A program made the position numbers and the translations under genes. From the NCBI RefSeq assembly GCF_000299365.1, contig NC_018655.1, forward strand, positions 1,140,001 through 1,172,000: a DNA stretch of 32,000 bases, read 5' to 3'. This document shows, in pieces, positions 9,524-28,485 of this stretch (the first letter of the stretch is position 1; each line of letters opens with the position of its first letter). Source of the stretch: Candidatus Nitrosopumilus koreensis AR1 (GTDB lineage Archaea > Thermoproteota > Nitrososphaeria > Nitrososphaerales > Nitrosopumilaceae). A model generated the notes under the pieces. It did no database searches. It was not told the origin of the DNA and saw nothing but the letters and a program-made list of their open reading frames with translations.

Positions 9524-9931
9524 TTAGGCCCGTCTAAACGTGGCTCTTGTTCCATCAGCCACATCAAGAATTGATTTGTCAGGAGAAATTATTTTTCCAA
9601 TAATGTTAACTGGAGATGCAGGAGTTATCTCCCCAGGATTACCAATAGGAGTAGAACCATAAAACAAGCAGATAGCCTTTCCCGTAGGCCAATAGGCCAC
9701 ATCATTTAATTGAACAGGAGACTGGGCATTTTCTTCAGGTTGATTAATTGGAGAATTTGATGAATAGATTTCATCACCCCAAACATTAAGATCCACGGTA
9801 AATTGTAATTTTTCAACAAACTCGTTTACTGTTTTTGGGGAATTAGAATCATCTAACTCTAAGATTATTTTTGAGGATTCTATATCAACATGAATTGTGT
9901 GTTTCATTATTTTGTAAAGGGTTTGACACAC
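9524..9931 (-). CDS. Cyclophilin-like superfamily protein (TM1367/DUF3830-like)
   Basis: 135-aa ORF. The likely real start is ATG at 9907 (MKHTIHVD). The pattern ..LDDSNSPKTV.EF...L......WGDEIY.......E.....V...DVAYWP.G.A.CLF resembles that family from memory only. Confidence 0.5.
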   Translation of the reverse strand: MCQTLYKIMKHTIHVDIESSKIILELDDSNSPKTVNEFVEKLQFTVDLNVWGDEIYSSNSPINQPEENAQSPVQLNDVAYWPTGKAICLFYGSTPIGNPGEITPASPVNIIGKIISPDKSILDVADGTRATFRRA

Positions 9932-9941
9932 ATAAGAATAC

Positions 9942-10052
9942 TTAGTTTATGCGGTCTCGCAACTGATGACAATCACATATGCAACCTTTTTGACATTTCA
10001 TTCGTTTACAATCAGAACATACATGTCTATCCCAATACGGTGCGGTGTTCAT
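9942..10052 (-). CDS. Candidate 36-aa Cys-rich micro-protein (MNTAPYWDRHVCSDCKRMKCQKGCICDCHQLRDRIN)
   Basis: Translated by hand and below the ORF-track cutoff. The ATG lies 1 nt after the stop of the upstream 73-aa ORF (TGATATG). Six Cys in 18 residues. Confidence 0.3.
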   Translation of the reverse strand: MNTAPYWDRHVCSDCKRMKCQKGCICDCHQLRDRIN

Positions 10053-10053
10053 A

Positions 10054-10275
10054 TCAATATCTCTGAGTAATTTTGTATGTTCCTCTTTTCATCAATATAA
10101 TGATCCTCAACAAAAATACAATCCAAATTCCCATTAATAGAAAATAAAGTATGTCTATGCCAGAAGATTCTGGGATTGGTGGTTCATTAGGTTCTTCAGG
10201 CAGATCAAACGTAGGCACATAAGTGATTCCTAAAAAAACAGGAATTGCAATCAAGATTACGATTGGGAGAACCAT
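10054..10275 (-). CDS. Small hypothetical membrane protein (two predicted TM helices)
   Basis: 73-aa ORF with two hydrophobic stretches (VLPIVILIAIPVFLGI and ILYFLLMGIWIVFLLRIIIL). Confidence 0.45.
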   Translation of the reverse strand: MVLPIVILIAIPVFLGITYVPTFDLPEEPNEPPIPESSGIDILYFLLMGIWIVFLLRIIILMKRGTYKITQRY

Positions 10276-10281
10276 ATCTAT

Positions 10282-10743
10282 CTAATTATATGGACTGTAA
10301 TTTGTAAAAATCTTTGCCACAGAATGAAAGTAAATGTCTTTTATGTCATCCTCAGTAGATACTGCAAGTAAATTAACAATATCTGAGGCAGTTATGATTC
10401 CGACTACAACATCATTATCAATTACAGGCAGTTTTCTGATTCCTCTTTCATGCATTAAATCAGCAGCAGATCTTATGGATTCATCTGAACTTACTGAAAA
10501 CATTGGAGAAGACATTATTTGTTTTACAGGAGTTGTGATAGGGTAAGCATGGGCAACTATTTTAGCTGAAAAATCTCTATCAGTGACAATTCCTACAGGG
10601 GTGTTATTTTCCATAACAATAATTGCGCCAACCTTTGCATCTTCCATCATTTTTGCAGCTTCATTTACATTCATAGATGAATCTACAGATATGACAGATT
10701 TTGTCATGACATCTGCAATAGTCATTGTTTTTCCACCAGACAT
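10282..10743 (-). CDS. CBS domain pair protein
   Basis: 153 aa with two CBS repeats (VMTKSVISV...GAIIVMENNTPVGIVTDRD and IMSSPMFSV...IRKLPVIDNDVVVGIITASD). Confidence 0.85.
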   Translation of the reverse strand: MSGGKTMTIADVMTKSVISVDSSMNVNEAAKMMEDAKVGAIIVMENNTPVGIVTDRDFSAKIVAHAYPITTPVKQIMSSPMFSVSSDESIRSAADLMHERGIRKLPVIDNDVVVGIITASDIVNLLAVSTEDDIKDIYFHSVAKIFTNYSPYN

Positions 10744-10857
10744 TTTACAATTTTATTACAATAATTCGTTATTTTAGACTCTTCTAGAATATCATGAGTG
10801 AAAATCATAAAAGATAATCACAAATTCTTTTAAATTAAAAATTATCTATAGTGCATC

Positions 10858-11283
10858 ATGGTAAGAAAAATTTCAAGCATACTTGTTCCATTAGATGGAT
10901 CTTCAAATTCTTTCAGAGGACTAGATATGGCAATTCACATGGCAAGAGAAAATCATGCTACAATTACAGGTCTATACGTGCTTGGAATTACAAAACCTAG
11001 AACTAATGATCCAATAACACCCGTAGAAAAAATTCTGTTAAAGCATGCACAAAAAATTATGAAAAAAGCAAAGACAACTGCAGCAAAGAAAGGAATATTG
11101 TTTTTTGAAAGAGTCTCATACGGAGACGAGAAAAAAAGAATTGTTGAGATTGCTGAAAAGAAAAACTTTGATCTTATCGTTATCGGTTCAAGAGGCATGG
11201 GAGCTGCAAAAGAAATATTCCTAGGAAGTACGTCAAATTATGTACTGCATAAATCAAAGAAACCAGTATTAATTGCAAAATGA
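10858..11283 (+). CDS. Universal stress protein (UspA family)
   Basis: 141 aa. ILVPLDGSSNS...DLIVIGSRGMGAAKEIFLGSTSNYVLHKSKKPVLI is a classic USP pattern. Confidence 0.85.
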   Translation: MVRKISSILVPLDGSSNSFRGLDMAIHMARENHATITGLYVLGITKPRTNDPITPVEKILLKHAQKIMKKAKTTAAKKGILFFERVSYGDEKKRIVEIAEKKNFDLIVIGSRGMGAAKEIFLGSTSNYVLHKSKKPVLIAK

Positions 11284-11305
11284 TTGAATTTTTGAAGGGC
11301 AATAT

Positions 11306-12025
11306 TTGAAAATGATAAAACCAAACACTCAAGAAAATACATTGCTTGTGGGATTTCCAAGTAACGGGCTTGTAGGAACATTTGCAATTTCATATCTAAT
11401 TCATTCCCTAAAGATGAGACAAATTGGAGAGATAGAAGTGCCGGACTTGCCATCAACACTGTTTGTAGAAAACGGAGAAATTCTGGCTCCAATTAGAGTA
11501 TACAATAAAAGAAATATTTTTGTAATAATTTCAGATGTTCCATTTAATCAGTACTTGGCAGAAGGTTTTGCACATGCAATACATGAATTTTGTAGGAAAA
11601 ACACCATAAAGAAAATAATTATTGTTAGCGGCATGGAAACAGCAAACAAAGAAAAAAATGCACCAAAAATTTTTGGCCTAGTCACCCATTCGATACTAGA
11701 AAATACATTATACAAAAATCAAATTCCAAAATTCTTAGATGGTTCGATTTTTGGAACAGACGCTTCAATAATTTCAGTTTTTAGGAAAACCAAGATTCCA
11801 GTACTTGTACTATATGCTGAATGTCATCCATTTTTTCCAGATCCTGAAGCTTCAATTGTTGCAATTGAGACACTTGCAAAGATTTTAGATGTCAAAGTGG
11901 ATATTCAAGATATTAAAAATAAGATAGACAAATTACGAATTCAACATAGGAATCTCATGGAAGAAACAATTCGCACATTACAACAACAAGAGAAACAAGG
12001 GAGTACTCCCCAGATATACAGGTGA
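11306..12025 (+). CDS. PAC2-family (proteasome assembly chaperone-like) protein
   Basis: 239-aa ORF; the probable start is ATG 11312. The N-terminus LLVGFPSNGLVGTFAISYLI resembles archaeal PAC2/PbaA-B proteins. This is family recall, not a search. Confidence 0.6.
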   Translation: MKMIKPNTQENTLLVGFPSNGLVGTFAISYLIHSLKMRQIGEIEVPDLPSTLFVENGEILAPIRVYNKRNIFVIISDVPFNQYLAEGFAHAIHEFCRKNTIKKIIIVSGMETANKEKNAPKIFGLVTHSILENTLYKNQIPKFLDGSIFGTDASIISVFRKTKIPVLVLYAECHPFFPDPEASIVAIETLAKILDVKVDIQDIKNKIDKLRIQHRNLMEETIRTLQQQEKQGSTPQIYR

Positions 12026-12029
12026 TAAA

Positions 12030-12410
12030 ATGAAAGAAAGTTTTGAGATAAGAACAGTATTCCCATCTATTAGTTCATTAATTGACGATATTGAGCATAG
12101 AATTCTATCTCCATTATCATATCTAAAAGAATTTGATAATCATTGGATATTGGAATTAGATCTACCAATGGTAAACAAGAAAGATATCAAGATTACTTTT
12201 GATGGAAATGCGATTAATGTGGAGGCAAAACTCAAAGAAGAATACTCGGAAGAAAAACTAGGAAAAATTTCAAAATTTGAATATTTTAAAAAATCAATAT
12301 CACTTTCAGGTAAAATTGAGATAAAAAAGACAACTGCAAAATTTCAGAAAGGCAGGTTAGTAATTAAAATTCCAAAAAAAACATCAGGTCATTCCATAAA
12401 GATCAACTAA
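12030..12410 (+). CDS. Small heat-shock protein (Hsp20/alpha-crystallin domain)
   Basis: 126 aa. WILELDLPMVNKKDIKITFDGNAINVEAK...F.KSISL......K..AKFQKGRLVIKIPKK matches the ACD pattern. Confidence 0.78.
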   Translation: MKESFEIRTVFPSISSLIDDIEHRILSPLSYLKEFDNHWILELDLPMVNKKDIKITFDGNAINVEAKLKEEYSEEKLGKISKFEYFKKSISLSGKIEIKKTTAKFQKGRLVIKIPKKTSGHSIKIN

Positions 12411-12460
12411 CGATTGAGACATTCATTTTGAATTAAATATGCCTTTTTTTAATTAAATTT

Positions 12461-12766: not shown

Positions 12767-12970
12767 TTGTCACATATGGATGAACAAAAATATTCAAAGT
12801 GGACAGTAGAAGGAGACAAAAAAACAAGATGGATTTGTGGTTGCTTTCAGACAGCAGATGATTACTTCAAATTCTGTGATGCACATAATGAAACTTTGAA
12901 AAAAGCAATTCAAGCTCAGGTTGACGAATTAGATATGACCTTGATTATTGAAGAAACTAAAGTGCAATGA
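12767..12970 (+). CDS. Hypothetical small protein
   Basis: 67-aa ORF; the likely start is ATG 12776. Its 3' end overlaps the convergent hppA 3' end by 14 nt. No family recognised. Confidence 0.35.
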   Translation: MSHMDEQKYSKWTVEGDKKTRWICGCFQTADDYFKFCDAHNETLKKAIQAQVDELDMTLIIEETKVQ

Positions 12971-15035
12971 TTGCAACAAATGCAGATACAAACACGATTG
13001 CAATTGTATTTAGCAATTTGATTACAGTGTTAAGTGCAGGACCTGCAGTGTCTTTGTAAGGATCACCTATAATATCACCAACAACTGCCACCTTGTGAAC
13101 TTCAGAACCTTTTTCGCCTTTCATCTCAACTAGTTTCTTTGCATTATCCCATGCGCCACCAGTATTTGCCAAGTGATATGCAAGGAGTATTCCAGTAACC
13201 ACAGCACCCATTAACAATCCAGCTACTGCAGTTGGACCTAACAAAACACCTAGAATAATTGGAGCAAGGATTGCAACTAATGCAGGTTTGTAAAGTTCTC
13301 TAATAGAAGCAACAGTTGCAATATCTACACATTTAGCATAATCTGGTTTTGATTTACCAGTAAGAATTCCTGGATCTGACTTGAATTGTCTTCTTACCTC
13401 ATCTACCATCTTTCCGGCAGCACGAGATACACCATTGATTAGTTGGCCTGTGATGATAAATGGAATCAGTCCACCAATCAAAAGACCTACAATAATTGCA
13501 GGGTTCGTTAAACTATAATCTAAATCTAAAACTCCTTCAAAGATATGAGCTGCCTCAAATTGGAATGCCTGAATCATGGCCAATGCAGCTAGTGCAGCAC
13601 TTGCAATAGCAAATCCCTTCGTAACTGCCTTGGTAGTATTTCCAACTGCATCAATTTCATCTGTGACTTTACGGTTTTCTTCACCCATGCCAGTCATCTC
13701 AACAATACCTCCTGCATTATCTGCAATTGGGCCAAATGCATCAATACTTAGAACAATTCCTGCAAGACTCAACATTGCCATTGCAGTTAGAGCAGTTCCA
13801 AAGATTCCATACAATACAGGATCTGCGCCTTCAGGAGCTGCTGCAGATGCAATACTGTAAGAGATAATGATTGCAACAACTAGTGCAATCATGAAAGGGC
13901 CTGTTGATTGCATACCTTTGATAATGCCCATTAATGTTAATGATGCATATCCCCACTTTGCAGAATCTGCAATTTCATTTACAGGACCATGCTTGTAACT
14001 AGTATAGTTATCAGTAATTTTTTGAATCACAGGTACTAGAATAACACCAATTACGGTTGTCCCAAACAATGCAATTCCTGCAGCGGATTGTTCAATGAAT
14101 TGTGTGATGAATACATAGTTTAATGCAATTGCAATCCCAGCTGAAACATAGAATGAACGATTAAGCGGTTTCATTACATCAGTTACTCCTTTAGAGCCAA
14201 CAATGACAACACCAATAATTGATGCAATCATTCCAGATGAGCCGATTAGAATTGGGTAAAGGAAATAGTTTGGAGCACCAATTAGTGCCGCAATTAGTAA
14301 TGCTGCTAAAATTGTAACAATATAAGACTCATAAACATCAGAACCCATTCCTGCTGCATCTCCAACATTATCTCCTACGTTATCTGCGATAGTTGCAGGG
14401 TTTCTAGGATCATCCTCAGGAATATTTGCTTCAACCTTTCCTACCAAGTCTGCACCCATATCTGCAGCCTTTGTGAAAATACCACCACCAATTCTAATGA
14501 ATAATGCAATTAAACTTGCGCCAATTCCCACACCAGCAATTGTGATGGGGTCAGGGAAAATGACATACAATCCTGCAATTGCCATTAATGCCATTGCAGG
14601 TACTGCAAGACCGACAGTTGCACCACCTCTAAAGGCCATAGCAAAAGTCTTTCCAAGACCATCATTGCTAAGATGAGCAGCTCTTACTGCTGCTTTTACT
14701 GTAATTTTTAATGAGATAATTCCTGCAACTGCAGACAATGCTGCGCCAACTGCAAACGCAAGACCGTTTGAGGGAGTAAGAAATGCGCCAATAATCACTG
14801 TTAATGCAATTGCAACAGGAATGATAATTTTCATCTCTCTTTTTAGAAATGCTGCAGCGCCAACTTTGACAGCATTTGAGATATCCATCATCTCTTTTGT
14901 TCCAGAAGGCTGCTTTGAAATCCAAGCAACCAATCCGCCAGCGACTAAAAATGATGCAATTCCTGCGATAAATGGCAGAATCTCAGCGATTTCCATGTTA
15001 TACTCGCTTGCCCTAGTCTGGGAAATATAAATCAA
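12957..15035 (-). CDS. hppA: Membrane-bound H+-translocating pyrophosphatase, K+-independent type
   Basis: 692-aa polytopic ORF with GGG.FTKAADMGADLVGKVE, DNVGDNVGD and GNTTKAVTKGFAI. Lys in GNTTKA is the published K+-independence signature. The probable start is ATG 14996 (MEIAEILPF). Confidence 0.95.
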   Translation of the reverse strand: MIYISQTRASEYNMEIAEILPFIAGIASFLVAGGLVAWISKQPSGTKEMMDISNAVKVGAAAFLKREMKIIIPVAIALTVIIGAFLTPSNGLAFAVGAALSAVAGIISLKITVKAAVRAAHLSNDGLGKTFAMAFRGGATVGLAVPAMALMAIAGLYVIFPDPITIAGVGIGASLIALFIRIGGGIFTKAADMGADLVGKVEANIPEDDPRNPATIADNVGDNVGDAAGMGSDVYESYIVTILAALLIAALIGAPNYFLYPILIGSSGMIASIIGVVIVGSKGVTDVMKPLNRSFYVSAGIAIALNYVFITQFIEQSAAGIALFGTTVIGVILVPVIQKITDNYTSYKHGPVNEIADSAKWGYASLTLMGIIKGMQSTGPFMIALVVAIIISYSIASAAAPEGADPVLYGIFGTALTAMAMLSLAGIVLSIDAFGPIADNAGGIVEMTGMGEENRKVTDEIDAVGNTTKAVTKGFAIASAALAALAMIQAFQFEAAHIFEGVLDLDYSLTNPAIIVGLLIGGLIPFIITGQLINGVSRAAGKMVDEVRRQFKSDPGILTGKSKPDYAKCVDIATVASIRELYKPALVAILAPIILGVLLGPTAVAGLLMGAVVTGILLAYHLANTGGAWDNAKKLVEMKGEKGSEVHKVAVVGDIIGDPYKDTAGPALNTVIKLLNTIAIVFVSAFVAIIAL

Positions 15036-15418
15036 ATAGCGGAGACTCTGATTCTTTTTCTGTATGGCAGAAATGATTTGCCACGCAAACCCTGCCTTAC
15101 GAGTTTGTTGAATCTCTTTCCATGTGCAAGATATGGGAATCGCATATGGATCAATTCATGAACAATTGTGTTTTCAAGAGTTTTCTCATCAGGAATTTTT
15201 CTCACATTAATGAAAACTAAATTGTGTTGAAGATAAGATACTCCATAGTACTTGTAAGCAGATGTACGTCTTCCTTCAGTCATCTCCTTTGGCGCATCTA
15301 GAACTTCTTTTGTAGTTAGTAAGATTGTAGGTTCAGGAATAGAGAATCGATTAGCATAGATCCCAACTTTTTCTAAAATTTGCAATTTCAATTCAGGATC
15401 AAGCTTCACATAATCCAA
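15032..15418 (-). CDS. Small HExxH zinc-metallopeptidase-like protein (SprT/DUF45-like)
   Basis: 128-aa ORF with a TTG start. Contains the motif IVHELIHMRFPYLAHGKRF. An in-frame TGA lies directly upstream of the TTG. Confidence 0.55.
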   Translation of the reverse strand: MDYVKLDPELKLQILEKVGIYANRFSIPEPTILLTTKEVLDAPKEMTEGRRTSAYKYYGVSYLQHNLVFINVRKIPDEKTLENTIVHELIHMRFPYLAHGKRFNKLVRQGLRGKSFLPYRKRIRVSAI

Positions 15419-15431
15419 TCATACAATCTAT

Positions 15432-15449
15432 GTTTATCTTGGAATGTCA
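15432..15449 (+). repeat. Left copy of the 18-bp direct repeat (candidate attL or target duplication)
   Basis: Identical to 21239-21256. Confidence 0.85.
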
Positions 15450-15456
15450 GTATTTT

Positions 15457-15476
15457 GTATCGGTAAAATAAAACGC
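15457..15476 (+). repeat. Left subterminal inverted repeat (20 nt)
   Basis: Its reverse complement matches 21208-21227 at 19/20. It contains a TATA-like TTTTATTTTA. Confidence 0.75.
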
Positions 15477-15542
15477 ATTTGACAGATTTTGTGACTAAAA
15501 TAAGAGCTTTGAAAGTACGAAATATGTCTAAAATAAGGTCAA

Positions 15543-16754
15543 TTATCCATAAAGAATTGCCATATGGACTGGACCGCCATATTTCATTCCCTTACTCCCC
15601 ACCATATTTCCAGCAGAAACAAAAATTTCAGCTGTGAATTTAGTAGAAAAATGTTCAATTCCAAACAGAGTCTTTAGTATTTTTAACAAATATCCTCTTG
15701 CAACTCTTTCAGCATCCCATAATCGATTTTTAATTTTCTCTCTTTCGGATTCGGTAATGGTGTAACTATTACCATGAGCAATCTTATGCCTAAGATTATA
15801 GAGGGACATATCTTCAGATTGTTTTTCAAACAATAGTTTGTAAGTTTCAGAATCTTTACCATGTAATTTTTCGATATGAGATTTTAGTGTTTGAGTAGAG
15901 CCAGTTTCTATACAATTCAGATATGCATTTTTTATGGATTCTATTGGATTCTTTCCAAGTTCACTTAAAGATTGTTCAATGCAATTTTTCATATTTTCTT
16001 TACGTTCACTCTTGGTCCTATTGTCTGCTCTAAATTGAATTAATGAAGAATTTTCTTTTGCCTCTTTTTCTATATAATATGCAAGAGATTCAATAGTTAA
16101 AATAAAAAATAAAAATTTCGCAGAGGGATCATTCAATCTAAATGATTGAGATAACCAACCAATACTACGATATATAGCATAATGATCTTCTTGTGGAATA
16201 TTTTCTAATTTTGATGTGATATTTTCTAATTCTTGTAAATGTTCTTCAGTAAATTGATAGGATGAACCATGATCATGAGATTCGTATTTTGGCAACCATT
16301 CAAAATAAGTTCCAGTTTTTAAAGAAAATGAAGAAAGGGCCTTGTCTATTTCTTTTAATGATTTTCGAACATTGTCTTCAGACCAATCAGATATTGGCAA
16401 CCATCCATCATACACAAATCTAGAACGCCTATCCATATCCATAGTTTTTAATCCAATTGGATCATCTTTACTAATTCTATTTCCTAGTGTAAAACATGGA
16501 ACAAGAGTGATGTTCCCATTAAGAGTTATAGGATTTGTTAATTTTGAGCTTGAAAAAGCAACAAACTCAAACCCATCACAATTTGTTAATTCATGTAAGA
16601 AGAACGCTGAACCTTCAGCAGTAGTGAGATCTTTTCTGGCAGCGTATCGAAATGCTTTTTGTGTCTTTAAATCGCTTTCAGAAATTACTATTTTCCGTTC
16701 ACACCAATTATTGAATTTATTACCTTCAATTTGAGGAAAAATCGAATCAGACAT
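15543..16754 (-). CDS. Uncharacterised 403-aa protein with a C-terminal HEPN-like domain (Rx4H: LRHKIAHG)
   Basis: Long ORF. R322-H-K-I-A-H327-G is encoded at 15774-15791, which I checked against the nucleotides. The motif sits about 75 aa from the C-terminus, after a helical segment with a conserved-looking Glu (FILTIESLAYYIEKE). I do not recognise the N-terminal ~200 aa. Confidence 0.6.
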   Translation of the reverse strand: MSDSIFPQIEGNKFNNWCERKIVISESDLKTQKAFRYAARKDLTTAEGSAFFLHELTNCDGFEFVAFSSSKLTNPITLNGNITLVPCFTLGNRISKDDPIGLKTMDMDRRSRFVYDGWLPISDWSEDNVRKSLKEIDKALSSFSLKTGTYFEWLPKYESHDHGSSYQFTEEHLQELENITSKLENIPQEDHYAIYRSIGWLSQSFRLNDPSAKFLFFILTIESLAYYIEKEAKENSSLIQFRADNRTKSERKENMKNCIEQSLSELGKNPIESIKNAYLNCIETGSTQTLKSHIEKLHGKDSETYKLLFEKQSEDMSLYNLRHKIAHGNSYTITESEREKIKNRLWDAERVARGYLLKILKTLFGIEHFSTKFTAEIFVSAGNMVGSKGMKYGGPVHMAILYG

Positions 16755-16906
16755 AAAACAAAGTGCTAGTAAGAGTGTAAAAAATGATCAGAGGTATTTG
16801 TATTTAAAACTCCTATTTGGGATATTCTAAATTATTTAATACGTAAAATCAGTACAGGATCCTATTTTTCCAAACTTATTTTATAGAAATATTCTGCAAT
16901 AAAATA
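16755..16906. promoter_or_regulatory. Divergent promoter region between the two HEPN-like genes
   Basis: TATA-like TTATTTTATAGA at 16876-16887 lies 20 nt before ATG 16907. A T-rich CATTTTTTACA on the minus strand (16776-16786) lies 22 nt before ATG 16754. This geometry fits leaderless archaeal mRNAs. Confidence 0.35.
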
Positions 16907-18010
16907 ATGGCTTCAATAATACTATCTTTTCAAGTAATAATAGAAGATTATGAAACAAAATTTAGACTTCATGGACCATTATTTCATAGATGGATTCCAG
17001 ATGGTGAGAAAGATGCGCTAATTTTGGATACACGATTTCCACATACGATGCTGAAAATATGGTTTGAAAGAAGAGGATATGTAGAAAGAGGAATGATTGA
17101 ATTTGATTCTAAACGTAAAGAGGTGGATGAATCAATTATGGAAAAACAAGGAGTATTAGAAGGAGGCAGATTATTTGGCTCATTACAGATAGATGAAGTT
17201 ACAAAAGAGCAATTTGACGCTCTAAAACAGAATAAAATTGGAGATGAACACTATAAAGAACTAGGAACAAAATTTGCAAAGACAATTTACGAACCAATCT
17301 CTCAGTTCTTAGATCTTCTACGGATAAGATATGGACAGTATTGGGTTAGAGACATAAGAAAATGGGATTCATCAAAGGAATCAATTGGTAATTATTGTGA
17401 ATTATTTTTTGTCAAGTGGTCTGAGGATGAAGGAAAGAGTTGGAATGAGTTTAAACCAGATAATGAACCAAGATCAGCAATAATATATTCATCATCAATA
17501 AAAGAAATGAAATCTTTTTTGAGTAAAGAAGATTGGAGAAATACCCCAGAAATATTAAAAAATTATCATCGTAGTTCAGTGGCAGAAAGAACTCTTGTAC
17601 GAGTACATCAATATTTAGATCAGGGAGATTTTCGTCATGCAATTATTGAGGGAGCAACAGCTGTAGAGCTAGCTACCAGTGAATTTTTTAACATGAAATT
17701 AGATTCAGATTCAAAAATAAAAGATGAACTTAATGGGTTTTGGGGAATTTCAGTATCTGGACAATTAGTAGCAATAGGAACAACATTAGGAATACCTGAA
17801 CAGAAATTACAAGATACAATAGAAGTCATAAAAACAAGACATAAAGTTGTACATGAAGGATTAGATCCAGATGCACAAATTATACAAAAAATTAGAACTT
17901 TACTTGAAACCACATCCATGATTCTAGGAGAACCAAAATTCAGATTTCCATCATCAAATCCAGGGAATATGATACAGGAAAATGAAGATTGGGAAAAAGA
18001 AAATGGATGA
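16907..18010 (+). CDS. Uncharacterised 367-aa protein with a C-terminal HEPN-like domain (Rx4H: TRHKVVHEG)
   Basis: Long ORF. R311-H-K-V-V-H316 is encoded at 17837-17854, verified in the nucleotides. It is preceded by a helix AIIEGATAVELATSEFF and followed by a terminal helix IIQKIRTLLETTSMIL. The N-terminal ~220 aa are unrecognised. Confidence 0.6.
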   Translation: MASIILSFQVIIEDYETKFRLHGPLFHRWIPDGEKDALILDTRFPHTMLKIWFERRGYVERGMIEFDSKRKEVDESIMEKQGVLEGGRLFGSLQIDEVTKEQFDALKQNKIGDEHYKELGTKFAKTIYEPISQFLDLLRIRYGQYWVRDIRKWDSSKESIGNYCELFFVKWSEDEGKSWNEFKPDNEPRSAIIYSSSIKEMKSFLSKEDWRNTPEILKNYHRSSVAERTLVRVHQYLDQGDFRHAIIEGATAVELATSEFFNMKLDSDSKIKDELNGFWGISVSGQLVAIGTTLGIPEQKLQDTIEVIKTRHKVVHEGLDPDAQIIQKIRTLLETTSMILGEPKFRFPSSNPGNMIQENEDWEKENG

Positions 18011-18127
18011 CATATTTATTTTGAAAATTTCATGCCTGAATCCCTGTTTTAGAGATAGGTTCTGAGGCTTTGTATGGTTTAACAAAGATATTTTATTGAT
18101 TTACAAATATCACAAATAAGGAACAAG

Positions 18128-18709
18128 TCATCTAAACAATCCATTGTTTATAATTATCACATGAATTGATCCAAAAATAAATGTCAATGTAGAAAATGTC
18201 ACTAATGTAAATGGGTAATCCTTCCATGATTTAGTAAATACAATGCCATGTTTTGCAAGTTGTATTTTTGCATTATATCCGAAAACAGAGGTTGCAAAAG
18301 GGAGAAAAAAAGTTGAAAGGATAGATACAATAACAGACAAATTGGAAAACCTATCTGAATCAAGAACGATTTCATTGTGTTGTTCAGCAATCAATTCAAA
18401 TAACTCTATCATGAAAAAAATTCCATCAATAAAAAAAGACATACCAATTCCCAGAATTGTAAAACCAATTATTGATGCCTGTTTGCGAGAAATTCGAATA
18501 TTCCAAAATGGACTGAAAAAACGCAACAACGTCAAAATCATCAACATCCAAAAAACTACAAAAGGGATCATGCTTGTCCATAAAAATTCCCGAAAGTCAT
18601 ACATTGTTTGTTCAAAAACAAGTAAACTGGTAATAGAAAGGAAAATACTCCACCATGTGAAAAGATTGTGATAATATTCAGATAGAAGAAAATGTAAGAA
18701 TTGTTTCAT
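18128..18709 (-). CDS. Hypothetical multi-pass membrane protein (about 5 TM helices)
   Basis: 193-aa ORF with hydrophobic segments WWSIFLSITSLLVF, MIPFVVFWMLMILTLL, IIGFTILGIGMSFFIDGIFFMI, LSVIVSILSTFFLPFATSVF and FTLVTFSTLTFIFGSIHVIII. Confidence 0.6.
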   Translation of the reverse strand: MKQFLHFLLSEYYHNLFTWWSIFLSITSLLVFEQTMYDFREFLWTSMIPFVVFWMLMILTLLRFFSPFWNIRISRKQASIIGFTILGIGMSFFIDGIFFMIELFELIAEQHNEIVLDSDRFSNLSVIVSILSTFFLPFATSVFGYNAKIQLAKHGIVFTKSWKDYPFTLVTFSTLTFIFGSIHVIIINNGLFR

Positions 18710-18970
18710 TAGTTAGTCTTAATCTAATTTCTAATTAATTGAAGATATAGATATCTGTGGGATTTACTAGACATCAGTCTTCAAATTCTACTAATCCTTC
18801 AAACATTTTCTCCGGCCGGACTATAGAATCATAGTTTTTACAGTAAATTTCAACAAATTCATCCCGGGAGTTGATATTTGAGTAATGTCTCTTGCAATAA
18901 TTTTTGAAATATGATTTTGTTCAAAAAGGAACGGATTGTATGGTTAAAAATTATTTTTTGGAATTGTTTT

Positions 18971-20887
18971 TTATCTCAGATTACGAAATTGATCTGGATT
19001 TGTGGTAGTTATAGTTATGAAGCTAGTTCCCTGACGCGGTTCACGATCACAAATAACATGTTCCCAGTGATTTTCAGGGATCCAATTTTTTAGTTCTGGA
19101 TCATAAACGAAATGAATTTTTGCCAAGTTTTTTTCATAGAAAAAATCTATTTTTTCTCTATCAGGTCCTGCAGGATTTCCTTCCGAAACTATTTCGATTG
19201 CAAAAGGTTTCAGATTTGTATAATTTGAGTAAAATTTGGGGACGTCCATTCTGTATAGTTTGGATTCATTCCTTTCAATGACTTCTTCTTTATAAAATGC
19301 CTCACGTACAAGTTTTACTCTGTCTTGAAGATAATAGTTAGAATTATCAACATTACAGAGTTCTTCATTTAGATACCATGAAGATTTTACAAGGGAATCA
19401 TATTTCCCAATATTCGTTACTTTAAGATCCCAATAGGTTCCTCCAAGGTCACCATCACGTTTGAATGGATGGATTTCATACTCAAGTTCCAGTTCAAAAT
19501 CCTGATACAGACTAGCTAACATCAAACCATTACTTCTTTCCAAGGCTTCCAAAATTTTTGACGTAGATTCACTTTCTCCAAGCATTTCTTCAGTTAATGA
19601 AACTAATGTTCCAGTAAGACTAAGAATAACAACTGTTGCTATAGCTGTCAATATAGCAGAGCCAACAAGAATTCTTTGAGTCCAAATGTTAGTGTTTTCT
19701 AAGGATTGGCTGGATTTTGTTTGAGCAAAACTTACAAGTTCTTTAAGATGTTCAGAAAGAATTTTGTATTGATTATTTAGAACGCCGTATTCTTCATCAA
19801 TAATTTTTGTATTTTTGTTAACATAATCTAATATATTGAAAAAAAATCCATAGTTTTTGGTAACAATATTTCCTCCAGTTATTGAGATTTCTGGACGTGG
19901 GAGTAAATCATGTTCAAGTGCACCTTCAACAAATTTTGAAATGTATCTTGTTTCATCAATAATACTAGAGAATTCTAAGAGAAAAGAGCTTTTTTCAATT
20001 AAAGGTGTGGGTCCAAAATCTTTTTTGGACAAAGTAATTTTTTCTTGAAATGTACTAATTTCTTTATTAAAAACATCTAGTTTCGTTTTCCATTTATGTA
20101 TCTGAGAAATTCTAAAATTTGTCCACAACCACAATAGTTGAGTTTCTAAGCTGTTTTCCATAGAAGATGAAAAAAACAGGTCTCCATCAAACAATTTTGA
20201 TTCTTGAGAAAACTCTAATTTTATAATCCATGAAAAATCATACCCATAATTAGAAAAAATTGATGCACCCTGAGCAATGACAGATATCTTATTAGCAAAA
20301 TATTCAGAAATTGAAATTAATCCACCGTAATTGACACCATATTTTCTCATGAAGGGTTTTTCTCGAAATTCTTTTGAAAATTCATCAGAAGTTTTATCAT
20401 GTTCAAGTTTACAGATTTCATCAAAATCAGGTGCTTCAAAATAGAAATTTACAAATCCACAGCCAGAATCAAACCTAAAATTATCTTTTGAATCAGAAAC
20501 AGCGCCAATTCCCATCCCTTTCCAAAATGACCAAAATCTCTTTCTCAAGGTTTCAATTTTTGTTCTGCTTTCATTAATTTCGCCAGATTCAATTTCTTCA
20601 ATAGTTTCTGAGGATAGAAATCCACTCATTTGGATAGTATGCATAAAGGAAAAACGTGCATAATTAATTACACGAATTTTTACTTCACTCATAAAAGAAA
20701 TGGATTCTGGGATTTCTGTTAGAGACCATTCTTGAAATGAGCCTCCACCCATAGGTCCGGTTTGAATCCAATTTGAGGATTTTGGGACTTCCCCATCAAT
20801 AATTTGTTTAATAGAATTATCGAGTTTGTTTTTTTCATTTTTGGTAACAAAATCTAAAATTGTGATTTTTCCTTTGCTTAATTTCAT
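18971..20887 (-). CDS. Uncharacterised 638-aa protein: ~400-aa N-terminal domain, single central TM helix, ~205-aa C-terminal domain
   Basis: Long uninterrupted ORF in AT-rich DNA. The only strongly hydrophobic stretch is ILVGSAILTAIATVVILSLTGTLVSL (about aa 405-431, nt 19595-19675). I see no P-loop or other catalytic motif. Confidence 0.65.
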   Translation of the reverse strand: MKLSKGKITILDFVTKNEKNKLDNSIKQIIDGEVPKSSNWIQTGPMGGGSFQEWSLTEIPESISFMSEVKIRVINYARFSFMHTIQMSGFLSSETIEEIESGEINESRTKIETLRKRFWSFWKGMGIGAVSDSKDNFRFDSGCGFVNFYFEAPDFDEICKLEHDKTSDEFSKEFREKPFMRKYGVNYGGLISISEYFANKISVIAQGASIFSNYGYDFSWIIKLEFSQESKLFDGDLFFSSSMENSLETQLLWLWTNFRISQIHKWKTKLDVFNKEISTFQEKITLSKKDFGPTPLIEKSSFLLEFSSIIDETRYISKFVEGALEHDLLPRPEISITGGNIVTKNYGFFFNILDYVNKNTKIIDEEYGVLNNQYKILSEHLKELVSFAQTKSSQSLENTNIWTQRILVGSAILTAIATVVILSLTGTLVSLTEEMLGESESTSKILEALERSNGLMLASLYQDFELELEYEIHPFKRDGDLGGTYWDLKVTNIGKYDSLVKSSWYLNEELCNVDNSNYYLQDRVKLVREAFYKEEVIERNESKLYRMDVPKFYSNYTNLKPFAIEIVSEGNPAGPDREKIDFFYEKNLAKIHFVYDPELKNWIPENHWEHVICDREPRQGTSFITITTTNPDQFRNLR

Positions 20888-20950
20888 ATTTGTATGAAAA
20901 TAATAATAGATTTAACTATTTTTTAAAAATTCAAATTTTCAGTAAAAATG

Positions 20951-21190
20951 TTAATTTTTTAGTCGCCTAAGAGATTCCCAAACCCCATAATGCTCCAATG
21001 TTTCAGTGTCATAGTTTTCTACAATTTTGGTCGAGCCAGTTCTCATATAATCCCCTAAAGATTCGGTGAATTGGATTTGATTTTTCAATAAATGTTGAAG
21101 ATCAGATACATGGATTTTCAATTCTTCCATTTCAGATTTTTCTACTCGCAGTTGTTGTATGAAGATTTCTTGTATTTGAGAAAAGATCAT
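20951..21190 (-). CDS. Hypothetical 79-aa helical protein at the island's right end
   Basis: ORF with heptad-like helical composition (IQEIFIQQLRVEKSEMEELKIHVSDLQHLLKNQIQ). A TATA-like AAATTAAAA inside the right inverted repeat lies about 25-30 nt upstream of its ATG. Confidence 0.45.
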   Translation of the reverse strand: MIFSQIQEIFIQQLRVEKSEMEELKIHVSDLQHLLKNQIQFTESLGDYMRTGSTKIVENYDTETLEHYGVWESLRRLKN

Positions 21191-21207
21191 AGTTAATTAT
21201 TCAATTT

Positions 21208-21227
21208 GCGTTTTAATTTACCGATAC
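21208..21227 (+). repeat. Right subterminal inverted repeat (20 nt)
   Basis: gcgttttaatttaccgatac matches the reverse complement of 15457-15476 at 19/20. Confidence 0.75.
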
Positions 21228-21238
21228 TTCTGGTATGC

Positions 21239-21256
21239 GTTTATCTTGGAATGTCA
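21239..21256 (+). repeat. Right copy of the 18-bp direct repeat (candidate attR or target duplication)
   Basis: Identical to 15432-15449. Confidence 0.85.
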
Positions 21257-21368: not shown

Positions 21369-21863
21369 TTATTCCATTAAATCAAGTAGACTTTGTACTT
21401 TATTTCTAATTTCTGAGTTAATTTTGACTACCACGAGTCCTTCATTTGGTTGACCGTACAATACAACAGAATTTTCAGGAGCATGAATACAAACGGGCAA
21501 TACCAAAAGGTCTTCTTCACCAGTTACAAGAATTCGTATTGGAGTTTTCATCAAAAATGCCTTTTTGATTACATCAATACTTTGAGAAGTGATTTCGGCA
21601 GGAGGGTTATCAACAGTTATCTCAGTTGCGTTTGCAAGTTTTGGCGGTTCTCGTTTTTCTCTTTTTTCGATACCATCTACAATCTGTAATGATGGAATTA
21701 AATCAAAACCAATCATCTTTTCAGTGGTTCTATCACCAACTGTAATGATGTAGGAATTTTGCTCAATATGTTTGAGAATATTTTCTTTGTTTGATTGACT
21801 TTCAGGTATAAGAGTACCCAAAGGGATTTTCATTTGTTCTCTTAGAGAGTCAGGTAACTTCAC
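21369..21863 (-). CDS. DUF359 family protein (archaeal GTP-dependent dephospho-CoA kinase family)
   Basis: 164 aa. ITVGDRTTEKMI...LQIVDGIEKR...ILVTGEEDLLVLPVCIHAPENSVVLYGQPNEGLVVVKI matches the DUF359 pattern. Confidence 0.8.
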   Translation of the reverse strand: MKLPDSLREQMKIPLGTLIPESQSNKENILKHIEQNSYIITVGDRTTEKMIGFDLIPSLQIVDGIEKREKREPPKLANATEITVDNPPAEITSQSIDVIKKAFLMKTPIRILVTGEEDLLVLPVCIHAPENSVVLYGQPNEGLVVVKINSEIRNKVQSLLDLME

Positions 21864-27905: not shown

Positions 27906-28448
27906 TTAAGATAGTTCTGCACTACCAAACAACACACTAAATGCTTGACACCAAATCAAGACCTTGTTGTATTTTGTCAGATCAGTATCAACAGGGATTT
28001 CATAGTTTTGATTTCCCTTGTTTGCTTTGAGTTCACCTAGATTCACAAACTCTGAGGCATCATCATCAGTTGCTAAGTAGACATACAAATCAGGACCATT
28101 AGTGGATTTGAAATTCTCTAATCGTAAGACGTTGCCACCATCTGCAAGAGGAATAGTGTATGCATCACCTTGTGCATCATGAATTCCATCACCTACACCG
28201 ATAAAAGTTCCAGAATAAGAAACAGGAATTGTTTCTTCCATCATAGTTTCTTCCATCATAGTTTCTTCCATCATAGTTTCTTCCATCATAGTTTCTTCCA
28301 TCATAGTTTCTTCCATCATAGGTTGAACAACTGCATCAGTAGGCAATGCCTCATCAATACTAGATTCTGTAAAATAAGGAGATATTGCAAATACAGATAC
28401 AGAGCCAATAATTGCTATTGCAATAATTGGTATCAGATATTTGTTCAT
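27906..28448 (-). CDS. Secreted or anchored DM13 domain protein with a Met/Glu-rich (MMEET)x6 linker
   Basis: 180 aa with an N-terminal anchor IPIIAIAIIGSVSVFAI. C-terminal DM13-like G.FIGVGDGIHDAQGDAYTI...LRLENFKSTNGPDLYVYL... Confidence 0.75.
   Translation of the reverse strand: MNKYLIPIIAIAIIGSVSVFAISPYFTESSIDEALPTDAVVQPMMEETMMEETMMEETMMEETMMEETMMEETIPVSYSGTFIGVGDGIHDAQGDAYTIPLADGGNVLRLENFKSTNGPDLYVYLATDDDASEFVNLGELKANKGNQNYEIPVDTDLTKYNKVLIWCQAFSVLFGSAELS
28231..28320. repeat. Perfect tandem repeat, 6 x 15 bp (gtttcttccatcata), inside the DM13 gene
   Basis: Counted directly: six identical units. On the minus strand it encodes MMEET x6. Confidence 0.95.
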
Positions 28449-28485
28449 ATAGAAAAGATTGAGTTTTTACTATAAAGGGGGTTTT

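Follow-up and report, generated by a model that had tools for sequence, protein, structure and literature searches.

Single-protein HEPN logic, in which sensor and effector sit in one polypeptide, has been demonstrated experimentally for HepS, ApeA, and DARNA. [quoted passage not shown] A survey in 2013 recorded numerous fusions of HEPN domains to N-terminal domains that were uncharacterised (PMC3710099). Here, we describe two adjacent, divergently oriented genes, NKOR_06965 and NKOR_06970, of Candidatus Nitrosopumilus koreensis AR1 (NC_018655.1, positions 1,140,001-1,172,000 of the forward strand; assembly GCF_000299365.1). This whole stretch of 32,000 nucleotides (nt) is called the window, and coordinates are counted from its first letter. 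Both genes encode a protein with an invariant R/H dyad of the HEPN type behind a large N-terminal domain, and both lie on one strain-specific insert of 5,807 bp. On balance, we lean towards reading them, by analogy with the systems above, as two independent single-protein sensor-plus-HEPN RNases, probably effectors of abortive-infection-type defence. Almost nothing is known of the antiviral repertoire of ammonia-oxidising archaea, a globally abundant group; the two genes would be testable candidates for single-protein abortive-infection RNases there.

A first-pass annotation of this DNA had placed a 403-amino-acid (aa) protein on the minus strand and a 367-aa protein on the plus strand, separated by a 152-bp divergent spacer; both open reading frames (ORFs) and the spacer are present as described. 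The genes, the domains delimited in AlphaFold models, and the motifs are as follows:

15543-16754, minus strand: NKOR_06965, ORF of protein 1 (family 1), 403 aa
16200-16754, minus strand: N-terminal alpha/beta domain of protein 1, residues 1 to ~185
15543-16199, minus strand: C-terminal all-helical, probable HEPN domain of protein 1, residues ~186-403
15774-15791, minus strand: Rx4H motif of protein 1, codons for R322-H-K-I-A-H327
16755-16906, no strand: divergent, AT-rich intergenic region of 152 bp with separate TATA-like elements
16907-18010, plus strand: NKOR_06970, ORF of protein 2 (family 2), 367 aa
16907-17518, plus strand: beta-rich N-terminal domain of protein 2, residues 1 to ~204
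17519-18010, plus strand: C-terminal helical, probable HEPN domain of protein 2, residues ~205-367
17837-17854, plus strand: Rx4H motif of protein 2, codons for R311-H-K-V-V-H316

By analogy, both proteins would work like HepS, ApeA, or DARNA, yet they belong to none of the three. HepS is alike in that a single polypeptide senses and executes, and in being an Rx4-6H HEPN nuclease carried by a mobile element (the Gifsy-1 prophage) with no partner antitoxin. Its structure (PDB 9oij/9oik) was the sole HEPN-related one among the top Foldseek matches of protein 1, with weak figures (probability ~0.2, range 0.18-0.20; TM-score <= 0.3). HepS differs in length (~190-220 aa versus 403 aa for protein 1) and has no sequence similarity to it; no counterpart of its trigger, the tail-tip protein of a siphovirus, is known from viruses of archaea.

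ApeA, whose family was defined in the 2013 survey (PMC3710099), shares the succession of a large uncharacterised N-terminal domain and a C-terminal HEPN domain, the single-gene organisation, and a distribution with more Bacteria than Archaea. However, the ligand-sensing ApeA-NTD1 spans ~300 aa, mostly of beta strands, whereas the N-terminal domain of protein 1 spans ~185 aa and is alpha/beta. Protein 1 matches no PADLOC model (a library not confirmed to hold ApeA), and HEPN_Apea was reached by 1 of 118 family-2 members (E 0.0025). UniRef names protein 1 “Apea-like HEPN domain-containing protein”; the name was not reproduced in our Pfam scan, which gave no HEPN_Apea match to protein 1 at E <= 10. 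Membership in ApeA was thus rejected on both the HEPN_Apea profile and the N-terminal domain. The Pfam family that recurs is HEPN_RiboL-PSP (PF18735), the best profile match of protein 1 and the most frequent weak match in family 2, in both cases below threshold; an L-PSP-type partner domain, to which the family name refers, was not seen.

Protein 2 has HEPN fold matches to HepT (Foldseek 7ae6, 5yep, 6m6u), with the Rx4H motif common to both, but HepT toxins measure ~130-150 aa, against 367 and 403 aa here, and need an adjacent minimal nucleotidyltransferase (MNT). A HepT/MntA type VII toxin-antitoxin module was rejected on three counts: no nucleotidyltransferase in the insert or its flanks, proteins too large, and no recurrent neighbour. 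The earlier remark that an MNT-type partner is missing thus holds for this window. Csm6/Csx1 proteins were the top structural matches of the protein 2 HEPN domain (5yjc, 6tug, 8pe3), and in them too an N-terminal sensor controls a C-terminal HEPN domain. Their CARF sensor is Rossmann-like, whereas the N-terminal domain of protein 2 is beta-rich; they are ancillary RNases usually associated with type III CRISPR-Cas. A CARF-HEPN assignment was rejected, there being no CARF match in Pfam, and the window being free of cas genes and CRISPR arrays.

Motif conservation and HEPN similarity

Chance alone would give an R-[NHQD]-x3-H match in ~7% of proteins of this size, by rough estimate, so that conservation is the real test. 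The motifs read in the first-pass annotation were LYNLRHKIAHG in protein 1, giving R322 and H327, and VIKTRHKVVHEG in protein 2, giving R311 and H316. As it had stated, they stand about 50-80 residues from the C-terminus (76 in protein 1, 51 in protein 2) and follow a helix that bears a Glu, here an invariant or near-invariant one (E222 in protein 1, E248/E254 in protein 2). Across 42 family-1 homologues (33-73% identity), R322, H327, G328, and the upstream-helix residue E222 are all invariant. R311 and H316 are invariant in a sample of 17 family-2 homologues and again in 118 representatives (27-46% identity), where they are among just five invariant columns; E254 is near-invariant there, and the motif consensus is RNxIVHEG. 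The dyad is thus constant, rather than variable, among the homologues of both proteins, and each protein has the signature of the HEPN superfamily, a conserved Rx4-6H, in many cases R-[NHQD]-x3-H, situated in the domain's C-terminal part.

The AlphaFold model of protein 1 (predicted local distance difference test [pLDDT], 87.3; predicted template modelling score [pTM], 0.74) separates the two domains listed above, and invariant residues of the N-terminal one include Y115-D-G-W118. HEPN_RiboL-PSP matched residues 222-337 (E 2.5e-6) over profile positions 47-170 of 191, which takes in the Rx4H region, and was matched by 6 of the 42 family-1 members (E <= 0.01). Family 1 has at least 54 clusters of homologues, bacterial and archaeal, found in metagenome-assembled genomes (MAGs) of Methanotrichaceae, Methanoregula, Methanomicrobiales, and Chthonomonadaceae, and in those of Thermodesulfobacteriota, Dehalococcoidia, Holophagaceae, and Rikenellaceae. 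We regard protein 1 as very probably a HEPN protein.

Protein 2 (pLDDT, 82.5; pTM, 0.82) gave Foldseek top matches in the PDB that were nearly all HEPN structures, namely, Csm6, AF_0298, Sulfolobus P95883, TM0613, and HepT, with probabilities up to 1.0 and target TM-scores of ~0.6. The protein itself had no family match in Pfam, NCBIfam, or PHROGs. When its 118 representatives were scanned, HEPN_RiboL-PSP was matched by 5/118 (E <= 0.01; best E, 1.4e-4) and was the sole Pfam family matched by more than one member, with HEPN_Apea and HEPN_Swt1 once each; in the 17-member sample, HEPN_RiboL-PSP and HEPN_Swt1 both recurred. An exhaustive profile search put family 2 at 1,398 cluster representatives (E <= 1e-3), almost all of 360-380 aa and matching end to end. 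Protein 2 is likely to be a HEPN protein as well. Its family is sizeable and is not described by curated domain or defence libraries at trusted threshold, and the conserved N-terminal domain could be a new sensor module.

The N-terminal domain of protein 2 contains a near-invariant GQYW143-146 motif. It also holds an Asp-box-like motif, S172-x-D174-x-G-x-x-W179 (window 17420-17443), invariant in 17 sequences; across the 118, W179 alone of this motif stays near-invariant, and weak BNR/Asp-box Pfam matches occur in a few family-2 members. PADLOC matched residues 146-209 to the candidate system PDC-S15, weakly (E 0.0017). Together, the Asp-box-like region and the PDC-S15 match could be a lead to relatives of a putative sensor domain. 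A sequence-profile search of solved structures (A1, A2, and the protein 1 C-terminal A6) returned chance matches alone (E >= 0.37; dynamin, sialidase, PTS enzyme I).

Taken against these data, the first-pass description of HEPN-type proteins with a large N-terminal domain of unassigned fold is supported, for protein 1 by a near-threshold Pfam match and for protein 2 by HEPN structures in Foldseek, at weak E-values. Its label “orphan” was wrong, given the UniRef HEPN name and at least 54 clusters for family 1 and 1,398 cluster representatives for family 2. UniProt already marks protein 1 as HEPN, and the fusion of an N-terminal domain of unknown kind to HEPN is an established pattern.

Relation between the two genes and their probable role

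An earlier proposal joined the two genes as a HEPN RNase pair, heterodimeric or mutually regulating, under common control of the 152-bp divergent promoter region. Such a pair would fit their adjacent and divergent arrangement, which recurs in two assemblies near-identical to N. koreensis, the usual make-up of HEPN active sites from both halves of a dimer (PMC3710099), and the lack of any antitoxin-like partner that could otherwise account for control of toxicity. However, the wider families do not bear it out. Loci were collected from genomes and metagenomes (13 family-1 and 84 family-2 loci) and searched by tblastn with both proteins, and the two closest relatives were added. No locus carried both families (0/99), a figure that covers physical adjacency at the locus. 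A partner-side (upstream) flank of at least 1.5 kb was available in 9/13 family-1 and 37/84 family-2 loci; counting either side, coverage was 13/13 and 54/84. The 0/99 include relatives at 73%, 69%, and 61% identity: upstream of the 73%-identical protein 1 homologue lies a gene for an unrelated 227-aa protein and no partner, the 553 bp upstream of the 69%-identical protein 2 homologue show no trace of protein 1, and protein 1 is absent from the 10 kb upstream of the 61%-identical one. Hidden Markov models (HMMs) of both HEPN domains, run against ~310 flanking ORFs and the rest of the window, found no HEPN-like protein. Nor did a bulk Pfam scan yield a recurrent neighbour: family-1 neighbours were all singletons, and family-2 neighbour families occurred at most three times.

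An hhalign comparison of families 1 and 2, over whole proteins as well as over single domains, aligned just the 19 columns of the Rx4H motif (probability 5-9%). A common origin of the two genes was rejected on this restriction (<= 9%), and the N-terminal domains of the two families are, by profile comparison, unrelated. The spacer holds no notable operator-like repeat, just AT-rich repeats of 8-10 nt, and an Rfam scan of spacer and insert gave no match; its TATA-like elements (for example, TTTATAG at 16879-16885) may be the promoters of NKOR_06965 and NKOR_06970. Family sizes are also far apart (~1,400 representatives of family 2 versus at least 54 clusters of family 1, at different search depths), and both families keep a solo architecture. 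We therefore consider a two-HEPN pair very improbable. As far as their sequences tell, NKOR_06965 and NKOR_06970 are independent stand-alone genes, and their adjacency is specific to one strain-level insert: since both lie on this insert, and the site is empty in other strains, the two HEPN genes are co-passengers. What is left of the proposed system is a set of defence candidates and a cleanly delimited, uncatalogued insert.

A family-2 homologue is present on a Priestia megaterium plasmid. Its divergent upstream neighbour encodes a coiled-coil protein with a membrane anchor and no relation to protein 1, and the resemblance to the divergent layout of N. koreensis was dismissed as coincidental.

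Both families are accessory, horizontally moving genes rather than housekeeping genes, and their patchy phyletic spread, together with the strain-specific site in Nitrosopumilus, argues against a core cellular role. Their neighbours include defence genes, namely, ThsA/SIR2, Lamassu LmuA/B, NucC, and Old/GajA/AriA-type ATPases, and also specificity (S) subunits of type I restriction-modification systems and Cas1. In the reading that we favour, two stand-alone sensor-plus-HEPN RNases, the proteins would share a plan of a family-specific N-terminal domain, with a sensory or regulatory role, and a C-terminal HEPN domain acting as a metal-independent RNase. Each would act alone as a homo-oligomer, as expected from the HEPN active site being normally formed across a dimer. 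The N-terminal domain would keep the HEPN RNase inactive until an infection-associated or stress signal is detected; the activated HEPN domains would then cleave cellular RNA (tRNA anticodon loops in characterised analogues) and halt growth, following abortive-infection logic. The adjacency of the two genes in N. koreensis would be the outcome of joint transport as cargo of one insert. RNase activity, oligomerisation, sensing, and a defence function are what we infer for both proteins.

Several observations weigh against this reading. Neither protein reaches a curated HEPN family at trusted cutoff: protein 1 is a near miss, at 28.0 bits against a Pfam gathering threshold of 28.4 (0.4 bits short), and protein 2 has no match. 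The Foldseek E-values of protein 2 are weak (0.02-1), and the full-length model of protein 1 found no significant fold match in the PDB or BFVD. The majority of neighbours in both families are ordinary metabolic genes, so that defence-island enrichment, judged from plain neighbour lists, is modest. No curated PADLOC defence model matches either protein, save the weak PDC-S15 match of protein 2. The co-occurrence count is one of physical adjacency only. GenBank phages and IMG/VR contained neither family, a negative that is neutral on a defence role.

Some of the same points lend themselves to a non-defence role for the HEPN fold (RNA processing, stress-induced RNA turnover, or nucleotide binding), or to one or both proteins not being HEPN and the motif being coincidental: the Pfam scores of both proteins fall short of the cutoffs, protein 1 lacks a significant structural match, many neighbours are metabolic, and some HEPN families, e.g., MtlR and Swt1, are regulatory or inactive (PMC3710099). 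We think this rather unlikely, with the exact catalytic dyad invariant across distant homologues, HEPN families the sole Pfam families to recur among members, the spread patchy, and the Nitrosopumilus site strain specific. An unlikely option, too, is a role of the HEPN proteins in retaining the mobile insert, as addiction or stabilisation toxins that their own N-terminal domains would hold in check, rather than in protecting the host from viruses; of the two, this one has slightly more in its favour. Both genes belong to the cargo of a discrete insert that has terminal repeats, HEPN toxins occur commonly in the toxin-antitoxin modules of mobile elements (PMC3710099), and homologues occur in an integrase/primase element (family 1) and on a plasmid (family 2). 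But an antitoxin gene is missing, with MNT absent and no small conserved partner in the neighbourhoods of either family, and many homologues sit among ordinary chromosomal genes with no element signature.

The family-1 homologue in question, P0010 (L001:665-8770; also L002-L004), lies inside an apparent small integrated element seen in at least 19 metagenome contigs, in the order tyrosine integrase, HEPN gene, 779-aa Prim-Pol/PriCT/D5_N primase-helicase, and second integrase fragment. The closest homologue of protein 1 (73% identity) is followed by a DUF6602 protein (L098:2537-3319), whose sequence GGFIFDSD...QIDLIVHND resembles a minimal nucleotidyltransferase by eye and would hint at a HEPN-nucleotidyltransferase pairing at that locus alone; the DUF6602 neighbour is not recurrent in family 1.

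The insert and its integration site

The insert (window 15432-21256; 5,807 bp) has a GC content of 30.8%, versus ~35% in its flanks, and is bounded by direct repeats with inverted repeats just inside them; in shuffled sequence, 0 chance matches to these repeats are expected. Its ends, its cargo beside the two HEPN genes, and the flanking core genes are as follows:

15032-15418, minus strand: SprT-like (HExxH) small metalloprotease-like gene, core flank outside the insert
15432-15449, plus strand: left 18-nt direct repeat, GTTTATCTTGGAATGTCA, perfect, bounding the insert
15457-15477, plus strand: left 21-nt inverted repeat, GTATCGGTAAAATAAAACGCA, 7 nt inside the direct repeat
18128-18709, minus strand: 193-aa hydrophobic protein, from its sequence probably a multi-pass membrane protein; no family; co-cargo of the insert
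18971-20887, minus strand: NKOR_06985, 638 aa, one predicted membrane helix; no family; co-cargo of the insert
20951-21190, minus strand: 79-aa ORF at the DUF359-side end of the insert, called in L100/L101; no PHROG match
21207-21227, minus strand: right 21-nt inverted repeat, 20/21 complementary, 11 nt inside the direct repeat
21239-21256, plus strand: right copy of the 18-nt direct repeat, perfect
21369-21863, minus strand: DUF359 gene, core flank outside the insert, adjoining the SprT-like gene in L105 and L106

The SprT-like gene has >1,280 homologues at 86-97% identity in Nitrosopumilus. Its junction with DUF359 is empty in Nitrosopumilus sp. S6 (L105) and in a 1.77-Mb assembly (L106), and synteny with N. 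koreensis (~90% nucleotide identity) breaks exactly there; the empty site carries the 18-mer once (L105:8961-8978). Other strains (L102-L104; e.g., L102:7535-8926) hold a different, unrelated insert of ~1.4 kb, whose three small ORFs measure 224, 78, and 135 aa. At its SprT side, the ~1.4-kb insert shares an end with that of N. koreensis, comprising the inverted repeat in degenerate form, TGCATTTAGTTTTACTTATAC, together with an 18-mer that has 3 mismatches. This suggests that the SprT-like/DUF359 junction is a recurrent integration hotspot or is occupied by a family of related elements with different cargo. The comparison of filled and empty sites marks a strain-variable integration hotspot beside the H+-pyrophosphatase locus in Nitrosopumilus.

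None of the five ORFs on the insert is a recognisable recombinase, integrase, or transposase. PADLOC, NCBIfam, and PHROGs gave no credible match for the five proteins, the weak PDC-S15 match being the sole lead, and the 193-aa and 638-aa proteins had no match in any library, plasmid, or phage collection. The insert is not listed in the published catalogue of Thaumarchaeota mobile (integrated) elements, and its 21-nt terminal repeat is absent from IMG/VR. It could conceivably be a previously uncatalogued thaumarchaeal mobile element, mobilised in trans for want of its own recombinase, whose whole cargo is a multi-gene defence cassette of the two sensor-HEPN RNases and the two membrane proteins acting together, an idea that we hold to be quite improbable; the direct repeats would then be an unusually long duplication of 18 bp, beside the inverted repeats at the ends of the element. 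If true, this would be the first defence-carrying non-autonomous transposon described in ammonia-oxidising archaea, and both N-terminal domains would represent novel sensor folds adapted to viruses of Nitrosopumilus.

A casposon or casposon-derived insert was ruled out, as no Cas1 (casposase) or PolB gene is present on the insert. For NitAR1-C1, the casposon of N. koreensis, the published motifs are a target duplication of 13 bp, ATTGATAAAGAGT, that adjoins a TTT leader, and terminal repeats with TTCTA at their end; the 18-nt repeat and the insert termini are unlike them.

In GenBank, NKOR_06975 is annotated as just 104 aa; the full 193-aa ORF is called in sister assemblies. Outside the insert, the H+-pyrophosphatase gene (window 12957-15035) is absent from L106, between the SprT-like and DUF2024 genes, and a Usp/CBS/PAC2/HSP20 block (window ~9.9-12.4 kb, about 9900-12420) is missing from L105. 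A perfect tandem repeat with a 15-nt unit, GTTTCTTCCATCATA, in 6.1 copies occupies window 28231-28321, inside the overlapping ORFs 27906-28448 (minus strand) and 28170-28475 (plus strand), and would form an in-frame pentapeptide repeat if coding.

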